Positions 41,186-44,635 of a stretch of DNA of 44,635 nt are shown here, piece by piece. The notes under the pieces are model-generated. The model was not told the origin of the DNA. It did not search any database and was given only the letters and a program-made list of their open reading frames with translations. This DNA is from an uncultured archaeon (GTDB lineage Archaea; Iainarchaeota; Iainarchaeia; Iainarchaeales; JAAZKV01), in assembly GCA_964550725.1 (NCBI GenBank), contig CAZKAC010000033.1:1-44635 (forward strand). The letters run 5' to 3'. Position numbers and translations under genes: made by a program. Within the stretch, counting starts at the first letter, position 1; every line of letters starts with the position of its first letter.

Positions 41186-41692
41186 CTAACAAACTTCATT
41201 TATAGAAATTTTTATTTGTTCAGCATTTTGTTTAAATTCTTTTATTGACTCTAACTGGTTTTCTCTCAAATATTTTCTTGAATCCTCACTTAGAGAAGAA
41301 ATTATTTGTTCTGCTTCACTCGCATTTTTTATTACTAAATTTGAATAAGCTATAGAATTTTTTACTCTTATATTATTACAATTTATATTATAAAAATCAA
41401 AACTATTTGATTCTGTCAATGCTAAAACCAAATAATAAAATACTTTTGTCGTAGCAATTTCTGCATCAATTATTTGAACAGTTTCTCCAAACATAATTTT
41501 CCCCCTAAATTCTGAAAGTTCATTTAAATAAGAATTTAAACTTTGTTGATTAGCTAAAAAACCATTTTCCACCCCATAATTTAACTGAATTGCTTTAAAT
41601 TCTTCTAAATCTTTAGAATTATTTAAACTAGGAATAGCCACACACCCAAAAAACAAACTTAAACAAATTAACAAAATAATAATATTTTTCAT
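41186..41692 (-). CDS. Putative secreted lipoprotein of unknown function
   Basis: Signal peptide with a lipobox-like end, MKNIIILLICLSLFFGC. The remainder is predicted helical. No family recognised. Confidence 0.55.
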   Translation of the reverse strand: MKNIIILLICLSLFFGCVAIPSLNNSKDLEEFKAIQLNYGVENGFLANQQSLNSYLNELSEFRGKIMFGETVQIIDAEIATTKVFYYLVLALTESNSFDFYNINCNNIRVKNSIAYSNLVIKNASEAEQIISSLSEDSRKYLRENQLESIKEFKQNAEQIKISINEVC

Positions 41693-41725
41693 AACAATAA
41701 TATGAATTAATTACTATTAAACCTT

Positions 41726-41760
41726 TTGTTATAACAAGGCTTTGTTTATTAACTTAGGCT
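41726..41760 (+). repeat. Left terminal inverted repeat (overlaps the transposase stop codon)
   Basis: See the mobile element entry. The transposase TAA is at 41754-41756, inside the repeat. Confidence 0.7.
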
Positions 41761-42935
41761 TTTAATACAATTTTTTGGGTTTCATAGGCTTTTGTATATA
41801 AAGCCTGTTCTAAATTTAATTCATAATAAGCAGAAATTAAACAACATAAATTATGACAAATTATTTTGCATAGAATTTCGTTTACATTGGCAGTATAATT
41901 TTTTGTCATTAGGTTTGAACCGAACTTTCGCTTAATCATTGAGAATGTTGTTTCTACGTTTGAACGCTTATGGTATCGTTCAAAGTATTCTTGTGGATGT
42001 TCTTTGAAGTAAAGCCACATTTTTCGCCACACTAAACCATTATTTCCACCAGTTACATTTGATTTGAACGGAATATATGGTATTGCACCAAGTTTAACAG
42101 TTTCTTCTAAATTTTGCCTTGACAAATAAGCCATATCAGCACTAACTTCTTTCCTCTTAAAATTAATAGCCGTCTTTTGAATTAAAGGCAAATAATTAAC
42201 TGTATCAGAACTTCCAACACCTTGTTGGTCTGTTATCAATACACTTGTTACAATGTTTGTTTTTGTTCCAACTGTTAAGTGGCATTTTCTGTAAATCTTT
42301 TTTTCTTTTTCTTCATTCCACTTGTAATCAAACCAACGACCAAAAACACTTGTAGAAAAACCAGAAGCATCAACACTAAACTGTTCTTCAACTTCTCTTA
42401 ATGGCAAGCCACTGGTTTCAACAATCTTTTTCAAAATATCAGTTAAACGAGAATCATTAAAATATTTCATCAATGTTGTGAAACAAGGAATTGTTTCAAT
42501 ACAATTCAACTCTTTTAAAAGTTTTAAATCTGAGATTGTTCTTCTTGAAGAATTTTTAATATAATTCTTCATAACCATACAATAAAGCACATCACGAATA
42601 TTTGCTGTTGGTCTTCCAGTTCTTTGTAAAGGCTCAAACTCAAAGATCTCCAAAACATTATTTAATAATTGTAAAAACAATTGTTTCTCATTTAATTGTG
42701 CTAAATTATAAGCTGACCAATCTATTACTGGTAAAGGTTGTTCTTGATAAACAAACTTTGACGGTTCGTAAGTGTCGGCTATGTGTTGTTTTTTTGATAA
42801 AAATTTGTAGTTGCAATTTTTACAAGCGTATTGTTGTCGCCAAAGAGTTTTTTTTGTGTTAAACACTTTGCCTCTTTTAACTATTTTTTCTGAACCGCAA
42901 CGGAAACACTTAAACTCTTTTTCCACATTAACCAC
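41754..42935 (-). CDS. DDE transposase of the IS4/IS5 superfamily with an N-terminal zinc ribbon
   Basis: N-terminal CFRCGS...CKNCNYKF. Candidate DDE residues are in VDASGFST, VSADMAYLS and SNVETTF. There is an exact Y-x2-R-x3-E-x6-K signature (YHKRSNVETTFSMIK). The apparent start is GTG at 42935. Confidence 0.8.
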   Translation of the reverse strand: MVNVEKEFKCFRCGSEKIVKRGKVFNTKKTLWRQQYACKNCNYKFLSKKQHIADTYEPSKFVYQEQPLPVIDWSAYNLAQLNEKQLFLQLLNNVLEIFEFEPLQRTGRPTANIRDVLYCMVMKNYIKNSSRRTISDLKLLKELNCIETIPCFTTLMKYFNDSRLTDILKKIVETSGLPLREVEEQFSVDASGFSTSVFGRWFDYKWNEEKEKKIYRKCHLTVGTKTNIVTSVLITDQQGVGSSDTVNYLPLIQKTAINFKRKEVSADMAYLSRQNLEETVKLGAIPYIPFKSNVTGGNNGLVWRKMWLYFKEHPQEYFERYHKRSNVETTFSMIKRKFGSNLMTKNYTANVNEILCKIICHNLCCLISAYYELNLEQALYTKAYETQKIVLKA

Positions 42936-43037
42936 TTATAACTATTCGTACGATATATTATAATTTAGTGTCATTCTCTTTATAAAGCTTCACTTTATTC
43001 GTACGCTTTTCACTTAACTATAAATATAAGTTCGTAC
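42931..43037 (+). promoter_or_regulatory. Three direct copies of a CACTT-(n)-ATTCGTAC motif in the divergent transposase / abrB-like intergenic region; candidate operator sites
   Basis: TTCGTACG occurs at 42945-42952 (within the perfect 8-nt palindrome TCGTACGA) and at 42998-43005. TTCGTAC occurs at 43031-43037. Each is preceded by CACTT (42933, 42991, 43011). Confidence 0.45.
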
Positions 43038-43067
43038 TATAAAATAACTAATAAAGGAGTTAATCGT

Positions 43068-43301
43068 ATGAATCAAAGAGAAATACTTAATAGTGTATCC
43101 GAAGAAAAGTTCAATCAAGAAGAAGAAAACGCAACACTATCTCATGATGGAAAACAATTTCTAATAAGAATACCAAAAGTAATAGCCGAAATAAAAAAAA
43201 TGAAAAAAGGCGACCAAATAAAATTCCACATAAAAATAGCAGAAAAACCAATGCCGACAGAAGAATCAGAATTAACAATTGAATATGTGAGAAAAAAATG
43301 A
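43068..43301 (+). CDS. AbrB/SpoVT-like (swapped-hairpin) small DNA-binding protein
   Basis: The ATG is preceded by AGGAG. The segment GKQFLIRIPKVIAEIKKMKKGDQIKFHI fits the AbrB-type pattern (..hRIPK.h...h.h..GD.h.h). Confidence 0.55.
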   Translation: MNQREILNSVSEEKFNQEEENATLSHDGKQFLIRIPKVIAEIKKMKKGDQIKFHIKIAEKPMPTEESELTIEYVRKK

Positions 43302-43510
43302 GTAATAACGATTACAAATCAACTATTAGAAAGCTTTTACAAGCACAAAGACGACCACTATCAACCAAAAGAATAGCAACAAAAACAAATATGGCATGGC
43401 CAACAGCAAAAAAATATTTAAACCAAATGAAAAAACAAGGAACACTCACAGCATACAAAAGTAGCAACCGAATCTTTTGGCAACCAACGAAAAAAAGAAA
43501 AGATTGGTAG
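43298..43510 (+). CDS. Small winged-helix DNA-binding protein
   Basis: ATGA overlap with the upstream gene. RPLSTKRIATKTNMAWPTAKKYLNQMKKQGTLTAY is a typical HTH plus wing. Confidence 0.5.
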   Translation: MSNNDYKSTIRKLLQAQRRPLSTKRIATKTNMAWPTAKKYLNQMKKQGTLTAYKSSNRIFWQPTKKRKDW

Positions 43511-43534
43511 ATTTTGGCTACCAATTTAGTTTAA

Positions 43535-44245
43535 TTAATTAGGTAATGATGGTGGGCCAGTTGCTGTTGAACCATAATTTAAGTAACAATCGTTTGCTAC
43601 TTTAACAACCATTACAATTCCAATATCTTCTTCTCTAAATTCATTTTCAAGATTTTTTCGATATTGTGCTTCTTGGGAACTACTTGGGTAAAACCATTTT
43701 TGATTTTCTGAATCCCAAAAATTGAATCCGGTTAAAGAACAATTAGAAAACAAATAATTATTTTTTACTCCTAACATATATGGATTAATTGCTAAAAAGT
43801 TCCACCCTTGAATAAGTTTTGCATATTTTTGATTTGTTTCAATTGAGGGCAAAGTATTTTTTTTACCAGCAGTAGTCCAAGTTTTACAATTTCCATTTGA
43901 ATGAACCCATGCTGCACCAGTAATTAAACCATTAACTGAATTTTGACTATCTGCCACTATTGTTAATGAGGGTGAACCAATATATTTTTTTTGACTTGCA
44001 TCATAAAAATATTGTTGTGGATATTTTTGGTGCCACCCAGTATTATTATTTAAATAATAACATTCACTTCTTTCAGAGTCTGAAAGTTCATTTGCAATAG
44101 TTGGTGGGGTGCCTGTTCCAATAGGAACTAAATTCCAACCTTCTTTTAAGTTTATTTCATAAGTTCCTGTTGTTGAATCATAATTTGCAAAAACAACTGA
44201 ACTTACTAATAAAACTAATCCTAAAATCATTAATATTTTCTTCAT
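43535..44245 (-). CDS. Secreted protein with two GWN-motif beta-rich modules. It ends in PPSLPN.
   Basis: The ATG is preceded by AGGAGG. Signal peptide MKKILMILGLVLLVSSVVFA. Internal repeat of LKEGWNLVPI / LIQGWNFLAI. Four Cys. Confidence 0.65.
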   Translation of the reverse strand: MKKILMILGLVLLVSSVVFANYDSTTGTYEINLKEGWNLVPIGTGTPPTIANELSDSERSECYYLNNNTGWHQKYPQQYFYDASQKKYIGSPSLTIVADSQNSVNGLITGAAWVHSNGNCKTWTTAGKKNTLPSIETNQKYAKLIQGWNFLAINPYMLGVKNNYLFSNCSLTGFNFWDSENQKWFYPSSSQEAQYRKNLENEFREEDIGIVMVVKVANDCYLNYGSTATGPPSLPN

Positions 44246-44259
44246 TTTTCATTCCTCCT

Positions 44260-44457
44260 TTATTCTGGCAGTGCTGGTGGCATTGGTGTTTCGTCTCCAG
44301 TTCCTGCTCCATTATTTGTATTATTTGTGTTGTCTGGTTGTGTTACAACATTTCCTGAACCATTATTTGTGTTATCAGTGTTTGTTGTTTCTGTGCAACC
44401 AAACATTAAACCAATTGCAACAAAGCAAATTAGCAAAACAATAATTATTTTCTTCAT
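44260..44457 (-). CDS. Small lipoprotein-like low-complexity (Asn/Thr/Gly) protein. It ends in PPALPE.
   Basis: The ATG at 44457 is preceded by GGAGG (the track start is TTG). Signal/lipobox-like MKKIIIVLLICFVAIGLMFGC, followed by a TNTDNTNNGSG...NTNNTNNGAGTG tract. Confidence 0.5.
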   Translation of the reverse strand: MKKIIIVLLICFVAIGLMFGCTETTNTDNTNNGSGNVVTQPDNTNNTNNGAGTGDETPMPPALPE

Positions 44458-44540
44458 GCTTAAAGCCTCCAATTTATATTATTTTAATGCTAAAATACTA
44501 TAAAAACATTTGTTTTAAAAAAAATGAATTTATGTACACA

Positions 44541-44580
44541 AGCCTAAGTTTCAGAGTTTATGAACAAAGCCTTATAACAA
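44541..44580 (-). repeat. Right terminal inverted repeat, partner of 41726-41760
   Basis: See the mobile element entry. It lies in non-coding DNA upstream of the 44260..44457 gene. Confidence 0.7.
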
Positions 44581-44635
44581 TAAAATACCATTATTAAAAA
44601 ACCTATTTACTTATTCTAAAAAAATATTTTTATTA

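Follow-up and report, generated by a model that had tools for sequence, protein, structure and literature searches.

Near the right end of the 44,635-nt archaeal contig CAZKAC010000033.1 (hereafter the window, meaning the whole stretch of DNA that was analyzed), a transposase gene and four other genes are bracketed by inverted repeats. We found that this segment, from position 41738 to position 44571 (2,834 bp), is very probably a non-composite transposon of an AT-rich, probably DPANN-type archaeon, that is, a "transporter IS" (insertion sequence) or small unit transposon for which a mechanism and a mode of regulation can be proposed. The limits of the element were set by alignment with independent copies, and the whole segment is considered mobile because one of these, a contig from another metagenome (L103; related loci carry such handles throughout), has the same 2,834 bp at another site with a different duplication. 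L103 is 98.4% identical to the window over exactly 41738–44571, with no gaps; its flanks are unrelated to those of the window, and it has its own perfect 9-bp target-site duplication, GGAATTATT. L104 has its right flank in common with L103. We conclude that two or more different sites have received the whole 2,834-bp unit with its four other genes. An earlier note on this DNA, made from the sequence alone, had suggested that the entire segment of about 2.85 kb may be the mobile unit. The second site in L103 and the target-site duplications of relatives bear out that suggestion, and its approximate limits are replaced by exact ones.

When the region 41500–44635 was searched for repeats, the longest and top-ranked inverted repeat paired 41724–41754 with 44555–44585 (31 nt ungapped, 81% complementary). 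The inverted repeat that the earlier note described as bracketing the segment is therefore real, and all of the blocks that it named are present. One of them, TTGTTATAA, lies outside the element, where it corresponds to a perfect 9-bp direct target-site duplication, TTATAACAA, that abuts both termini (41729–41737 and 44572–44580). The duplication reads as inverted because the left flank, TTGTTATAACAA, is a palindrome. The terminal inverted repeats themselves, read inward, are GGCTTTGTTTATTAACTT (proximal, next to the transposase) and GGCTTTGTTCATAAACTC (distal, on the cargo side), and they match at 15 of 18 positions. Homology across copies stops at ...AACAAAGCC: in the five ends that were aligned (the two from the window element, the two from L001, and the one beside the transposase in L003), the shared sequence is ...TAAGTT..T.AACAAAGCC, and divergence begins immediately outside. 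The whole window contains the terminal 9-mer GGCTTTGTT only twice: at 41738 on one strand and, as the reverse complement AACAAAGCC, at 44563–44571 on the other. Farther in, at 49 nt (proximal) or 27 nt (distal) from the terminus, the motif of each end recurs as a subterminal copy, and equivalent second copies were found in more distant relatives. The features of the two ends are as follows.

41729–41737, no strand: left target-site duplication, TTATAACAA; a 9-mer identical to that on the right and, like it, flush with the terminus; also in L097, L098, and L100.
41738–41755, plus strand: proximal terminal inverted repeat, GGCTTTGTTTATTAACTT; the homology of L001, L003, L004, and L103 ends exactly here.
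41757–41770: partial copy of the end motif, GGCTTTTAATACAA.
41787–41802, plus strand: proximal subterminal box, GGCTTTTGTATATAAA; the second copy of the end motif, within the 3' coding region of the transposase gene.
44529–44544, minus strand: distal subterminal box, GGCTTGTGTACATAAA (read inward); 14 of its 16 positions agree with the proximal box.
44554–44571, minus strand: distal (cargo-side) terminal inverted repeat, GGCTTTGTTCATAAACTC (read inward); the homology of L001, L004, and L103 ends at 44571.
44572–44580, no strand: right target-site duplication, TTATAACAA; flush with the distal terminus.

The proximal terminal repeat overlaps the stop codon of the transposase gene (41754–41756). 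The proximal subterminal box has a counterpart at a similar offset in L001, L004, and L010, and a more degenerate one in L012, L015, and L017; the distal box is conserved in L001 and L004, and L010, L012, and L015 have equivalent second copies.

The same insertion with the same duplication was present in three other assemblies of the window's locus (L097, L098, and L100), and both window junctions were covered by independent Logan contigs. The transposase falls in a 90% identity cluster of 21 members, most of them on contigs of 2.4–3.9 kb, about one element long; such sizes are as expected, because a repeated element would break assemblies. At its locus, the element lies between two divergent genes, in an intergenic region of about 280 nt (window 41693–41737 plus L097 5450–5674), having inserted 36 nt upstream of the start of a gene for a lipoprotein-like protein of 168 amino acids (aa; 41186–41692). 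A 303-aa gene lies on the other side, 225 nt from the element, and the window contig stops 64 nt beyond the element. Ends of IS903-group elements have been reported with outward promoters (PMC3281130), and it is possible that the element affects the expression of the flanking 168-aa gene.

Some contigs showed other arrangements of parts of the element. L099 (1–195 compared with L097 5480–5674) has the window's element and proximal flank at 99.6% identity and a distal flank that differs from the first outside base; the alternatives here are a chimeric assembly, collapse of a second copy by the assembler, and recombination between copies. Positions 461–1348 of L002 (JGI 3300001335) match window 42450–43395, with 100% identity up to codon 165 of the transposase, past which L002 runs in frame into a Mur_ligase_C domain; this contig either is a chimera of the assembly or represents a copy that was rearranged and truncated. 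In run X4, a 385-nt Logan contig at about 31x depth, compared with about 4x for the locus itself, matches the element over its distal 43 nt only (window 44529–44571) and ends exactly at 44571, which implies that the cargo-side end is also present in a more abundant context in that sample.

The enzyme that would move the element is encoded next to the proximal end.

41754–42935, minus strand: DDE transposase of 393 aa with an N-terminal four-Cys zinc ribbon (Pfam DDE_Tnp_1, E 2.9e-16).

The gene had already been read as a DDE transposase from the sequence alone, and the Pfam match and the intact catalytic residues confirm it. Across 40 homologues, the residues that are invariant include C10, C13, C38, and C41 of the zinc ribbon, the catalytic D189, D267, and E328, and Y321, R324, and K335, which complete the signature Y(2)R(3)E(6)K. 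There are thousands of homologues (6,304 were scored), many of them in DPANN archaea. The D, D, E, and YREK residues align with those of the IS903 transposase (23% identity, pairwise E 1e-11). A copy of IS903 on a Klebsiella plasmid has ends that read GGCTTTGTTGAATAAATC and a 9-bp duplication, ACCTTTCGA, and the first nine bases of its inverted repeat are identical to those of the window element. Judged by these comparisons, the element encodes a single intact IS5-family DDE transposase related to IS903, and its chemistry and end and target geometry are IS903-like. It departs from IS903 in its size, its gene content, the zinc ribbon, and its two-box ends.

The transposase gene is divergent from a pair of small genes, with which it shares a control region.

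42936–43067, no strand: divergent control region (132 nt) between the transposase and 77-aa genes; mean column identity 81%.
43068–43301, plus strand: small protein of 77 aa, possibly AbrB/MazE-like; a conserved companion of the transposase.
43298–43510, plus strand: winged-helix-like protein of 70 aa; its start overlaps the stop of the 77-aa gene (ATGA).

The control region is better conserved than the genes themselves. It contains three GTACGAA boxes, all on the minus strand (42945–42951, 42998–43004, and 43031–43037), and a TATA-like element, AAGCTTTATAAA, at about 42979–42990. Two of the boxes and AAGCTTTATAAA are invariant in all seven aligned rows, among them L010, whose transposase is 64% identical to that of the window, and the third box is conserved in all six rows that span it. 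The window as a whole has four GTACGAA sequences, three of them in the control region, versus 1.2 expected. The pair of small genes stands beside the transposase in L001, L002, L004, L005, L006, L010, and L017.

The 70-aa protein had been labeled a winged helix-turn-helix (HTH) protein. Concordant matches to DUF7342 (28.8 bits; cut-off 31.6), HTH_IclR (20.1; cut-off 22), and HTH_24 (19.9; cut-off 21.9) favor that label, although all of them fall just below the Pfam cut-offs. The AbrB-like label given to the 77-aa protein remains a hint. The protein matched no Pfam or NCBIfam family, only 14 database clusters match it (at 74%–92% identity), and a PDB profile search yielded chance matches only. 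Sister elements encode, at the same place, a protein of 52–60 aa with a weak match to MazE_antitoxin, and an hhalign comparison of the 77-aa family with these MazE-like companions gave a probability of 26%. An AlphaFold2 model of the 77-aa protein (predicted local distance difference test score 55) has a beta-beta-alpha-beta-beta topology, which is compatible with the AbrB/MazE order, and MazE and C56 of pSSVi were among the top Foldseek matches to this model, at E values (1.5–3.9) that are not significant.

We propose the following mechanism. At each end, the transposase would bind both the terminal repeat and the subterminal box, a step in which its N-terminal zinc ribbon probably assists; it would pair the ends 2.8 kb apart and cut at the GG termini. 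The ends would then be joined to a target cut with a 9-bp stagger, as in IS903, and repair of the gaps would give the 9-bp duplication. The 77-aa and 70-aa genes are predicted to be transcribed divergently from the transposase gene from a shared promoter, and both small proteins may bind the three GTACGAA boxes around the TATA-like element, thereby setting the level of the transposase and their own.

The pair could instead be a toxin-antitoxin or addiction module that stabilizes the element and has no part in regulating transposition, a reading that we consider unlikely. It would suit two small genes that overlap by 4 nt and adjoin the transposase, in a group whose sister companions weakly match MazE_antitoxin, and Tn3-family transposons carry toxin-antitoxin pairs at the equivalent place beside the transposase (PMC7157771). 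On the other side, neither protein matches a toxin family in Pfam or NCBIfam, the second protein is HTH-like, and L012 and L013 have a MazE-like gene without a partner. Operator-like boxes that flank a shared promoter fit a regulatory and a toxin-antitoxin role alike.

Beyond the small genes lie two cargo genes, both on the minus strand.

43535–44245, minus strand: cargo gene 1, a protein of 236 aa with an N-terminal hydrophobic signal-like segment (from the open reading frame and its translation).
44260–44457, minus strand: cargo gene 2, a protein of 65 aa with a lipobox-like N terminus (..LMFGC) and an Asn/Thr-rich repeat (from the open reading frame).

No Pfam or NCBIfam family matched the 236-aa protein above threshold, and apart from the window's own protein only nine database clusters match it, at no more than 40% identity and none of them named. 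The 65-aa protein has no recognizable family; its gene was also called in L097–L100 and L103. Within that gene, two 46-nt direct repeats (44298–44394, 76% identical, 51 nt apart) encode an Asn/Thr/Gly-rich repeated peptide.

The cargo genes occupy a slot. Aligned with the window, L004 loses homology precisely behind the stop codon of the 70-aa gene (43509/43510) and regains it 50 nt from the distal terminus (44522), and L095 shows the same limits. The segment from 43510 to about 44520 is thus a cargo slot that holds different genes in backbones that are about 90% identical. Three cargo sets were seen in it: the 236-aa and 65-aa secreted proteins (window, L001, and L103), membrane proteins of 134 and 184 aa (L094 and L095), and a lipoprotein-like protein of 201 aa and, with an HExxH motif recognized from the sequence only, a Cys-rich protein of 511 aa (L004).

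Relatives share one layout, in the order distal end, variable cargo, small gene or genes, divergent transposase, and proximal end. Those listed here are each flanked by a 9-bp duplication; identities are those of the transposase to the window's.

L004: 93% identical; 4,064 bp; perfect duplication CTTTTTGAG.
L010: 64% identical; 3,540 bp; perfect duplication ATTAGTATA.
L015: 59% identical; 4,497 bp; perfect duplication GAAAGCCGG.
L012: 57% identical; 6,523 bp; perfect duplication TTATTTTAT.
L013: 57% identical; 2,260 bp; perfect duplication CTAAAAAAA.
L017: 43% identical; 8,571 bp; perfect duplication GTTCTCGCC.

Gene calling placed no small companion between transposase and cargo in L015, and in L012 and L013 the MazE-like gene stands alone. 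L003 (1–5195) has a transposase that is 72% identical and the same proximal end; neither a 77-aa nor a winged-helix companion was called on its upstream side, and a distal end did not turn up within 4 kb. The upstream genes of L003 match NYN, N6_N4_Mtase, and ResIII, and it may be a larger element with defense cargo.

A contig scan with the single transposase protein gave no match, and a scan with the alignment of 40 sequences as the query (one genome per species) gave 80 loci. To 97 transposase copies we applied a script that required a GGCTTTG-type end, an inverted-repeat match of at least 13 of 18, and a 9-bp flanking repeat. Forty-eight elements, of 1,802–11,562 bp (median 4.5 kb), were delimited in this way, and the flanking repeat was perfect in 46 of them and had one mismatch in the other two. 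About half of the 97 copies were not delimited; many of these lie at contig ends, and for the approximately 20 that have full flanks, possible reasons are decay of the ends, a distance of more than 10 kb, or ends of a different type. The hosts include archaea (Woesearchaeota, Pacearchaeota, Aenigmatarchaeota, Nanoarchaeota, Methanosarcinales, and Methanoperedens) and bacteria (Dehalococcoidia, Pyrinomonadaceae, and Acidimicrobiia). The cargo of the surveyed relatives often consists of restriction-modification genes, and the types that recur are N6_Mtase/Eco57I, PD-(D/E)XK nucleases, C5 and N4/N6 DNA methylases, and Vsr. In Pyrinomonadaceae, elements lie end to end (L024 2275–11359, L055 7360–14472, and L047 241–5696), separated only by a 9–10-nt target (CCCTAAGGTG, CACCGGCTGG, and CTGCCTCTG), with more element ends abutting outside; this stacking suggests repeated insertion into the same target beside a resident copy.

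Given such variable cargo, one could regard these loci as occasional "transposable modules", in which a one-ended IS uses a fortuitous or duplicated surrogate end and each cargo is a one-off capture. Cargo that differs among otherwise similar backbones would be explained in this way, and so would the distal end of L013, which is a perfect 56-nt copy of its proximal end. We nevertheless judge this reading improbable for the window element. Its distal end has a conserved structure of its own, in which the terminal and subterminal boxes are spaced differently; elements with different cargo share about 50 nt of conserved sequence at that end; the same cargo set has moved intact to a second site, in L103; and none of the 48 delimited elements has an internal end beside the transposase. 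It is possible that the module reading applies to how the family arose and not to what it is today. The two 56-nt inverted repeats of L013 (392–447 and 2596–2651) include the last transposase codons. Its end on the cargo side has the look of a recent duplicate of the one beside the transposase, and this duplication may hint at how such ends arise.

It is highly improbable that the mobile element is a transposase-only IS of about 1.2–1.3 kb (approximately 41738–42990), with 44554–44571 as a solo end and the four other genes as ordinary neighbors. Canonical IS903-group elements are indeed about 1,050 bp long with one open reading frame, and the earlier note, which weighed the idea of a solo right end left by another copy, had pointed to an 8/9 match to TTGTTATAA at 42936–42944. 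That match is irrelevant, since what it resembles is the target duplication rather than the end motif. The note had also remarked that there is no comparable partner beside the 5' end of the transposase gene; this holds both for the repeat search of 41500–44635, which found none, and for the 97 related copies, in which no convincing inverted repeat lies near the 5' end and no copy ends at a position equivalent to about 42944 with a repeat of its own. There were no transposase-only elements among the 48 that were delimited, and the 9-bp duplication flanks the 2,834-bp unit. L103, which carries the entire unit of five genes at another site with its own duplication, already refutes both the transposase-only element and the solo end. 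Nor is 44541–44580 an unrelated intergenic repeat, as it might have been: the sequence always marks the cargo-side end of these elements.

A generic test for a 9/9 direct repeat with an inverted repeat of at least 13/18 gave 13 hits across the whole window (28% GC) versus about 4.5 in Markov simulations, with the element's pair ranked top at 15/18, and by itself such a test is not specific in 28%-GC DNA. Specificity comes from the terminal 9-mer, which contains G and C, from its anchoring at the 3' end of the transposase gene, and from its exact coincidence with the homology limits at other loci; with the proximal end fixed, we estimate a probability of about 1e-6 from base composition. Despite the several chance hits in the generic test, then, a chance match in AT-rich DNA or an immobile conserved syntenic block is a negligible prospect, given that the 9-mer is unique on each strand, that homology ends precisely at it in five independent loci, and that the flanks differ between copies.

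Several points weigh against our interpretation of the segment as an IS903-related transposon with its own regulators. The best-scoring NCBIfam model for the transposase, transpos_IS5_2, which we assumed to stand in for the IS903 group, gave 118.1 bits, below its curated cut-off of 140, and the top tblastn matches among 72,556 plasmids, IS903 and IS903B, were of low identity (22%–26%). No joint that skips the element was found in the Logan contigs of four runs, which are shallow (about 5x), and an exact-protein look-up of an empty site with the flanking 168-aa protein gave no match. L001 and L095 have both ends but lack a matching duplication. The likeness of the 77-aa protein to AbrB is a hint and is not established, a regulatory role for the two small proteins is suggested by position and conservation only, and the binding of the transposase to the subterminal boxes is a prediction. 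As to L001 and L095, their contigs are short and of low coverage, and the distal flank of L095, TACCCATAA, is the reverse complement of the proximal flank of L102, TTATGGGTA. We therefore read both as probable joins between halves of different insertions and not as counter-evidence.

The window element resembles the IS903 group in its DDE_Tnp_1 transposase with alignable D, D, E, and YREK residues, in its ends (which start GGCTTTGTT, with the GGC that is characteristic of the group), and in its 9-bp duplications. The eight IS903-group members in a table of captured Paracoccus ISs are all about 1,050 bp long with 9-bp repeats (PMC3281130). An IS903-group element has one open reading frame and a single 15–27-bp inverted repeat at each end, whereas the window element has 2,834 bp, five genes, an extra N-terminal zinc ribbon, and subterminal second boxes. 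Neither it nor its relatives (1.8–11.6 kb) fit the compact, single-gene format of about 950–1,150 bp. The transporter IS, an IS derivative with passenger genes, is an ISfinder concept (PMC9330008). It describes the window element well: one IS-type transposase and its passengers lie within one inverted-repeat pair, flanked by one target duplication, and this unit, passengers included, occupies more than one site (the window versus L103 and L104). Some transporter ISs are known in other families, such as IS1595 and IS66. Unlike them, the elements described here seem to bear cargo as the rule for a whole transposase clade, and they have a conserved regulator-like module.

Tn3 has a transposase of about 1,000 aa, 38-bp inverted repeats, 5-bp duplications, and a resolvase or res site, and none of these textbook traits of size, repeat, duplication, and resolvase applies to the window element. 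What the window element has in common with Tn3-family transposons (PMC7157771) is a non-composite structure with cargo and a small two-gene module beside the transposase with a shared divergent control region. Composite transposons such as Tn903 also have IS903-type ends that bracket cargo, but they have a complete IS on each side; the window element has one transposase gene and, on the cargo side, about 50 nt of end sequence, which rules out a composite transposon. The aloposons of Heimdallarchaeia are, like it, archaeal mobile elements with cargo. They integrate at tRNA genes and carry giant tandem genes (PMC8813620), and they were rejected as relatives, as they lack the logic of a terminal inverted repeat with a 9-bp duplication.

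More broadly, we tentatively suggest, as a possibility that falls somewhat short of our favored conclusions, that these elements form a large unclassified clade of IS903-related transposons that are obligately cargo-bearing, with an exchangeable slot and two-box ends, and that the zinc-ribbon subclade to which the window element belongs has its own small DNA-binding regulators. The clade would extend across DPANN and methanogenic archaea, Dehalococcoidia, Pyrinomonadaceae, and Acidimicrobiia, with surface or membrane proteins or restriction-modification systems as passengers. A 2019 survey of integrated elements in archaea reported that transposons with passenger genes were not detected there (PMC6563490), a gap that an IS903-related cargo family would fill. 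Our search of the literature, which lay outside ISfinder and TnCentral, found no description of an IS903-related transporter IS, of a transporter IS in DPANN archaea, or of an archaeal cargo transposon of this type.

A hint in raw sequence has thus become an exactly delimited, apparently active archaeal transposon with defined ends, target duplication, catalytic residues, and a second site. For annotation, the four genes that looked like an island become transposon cargo with boundaries at 41738 and 44571. If the broader reading is true, the elements would constitute a distinct family of small unit transposons and a DDE-transposon route for the transfer of cargo in archaea. The elements seen here also show that an IS903-type transposase can routinely move 2–11 kb. 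The genomes of DPANN archaea are tiny, and these organisms rely on cell-surface contact with hosts. A transposon that shuffles secreted and membrane proteins, or in its relatives restriction-modification genes, would be a concrete vehicle for exchanging such genes.

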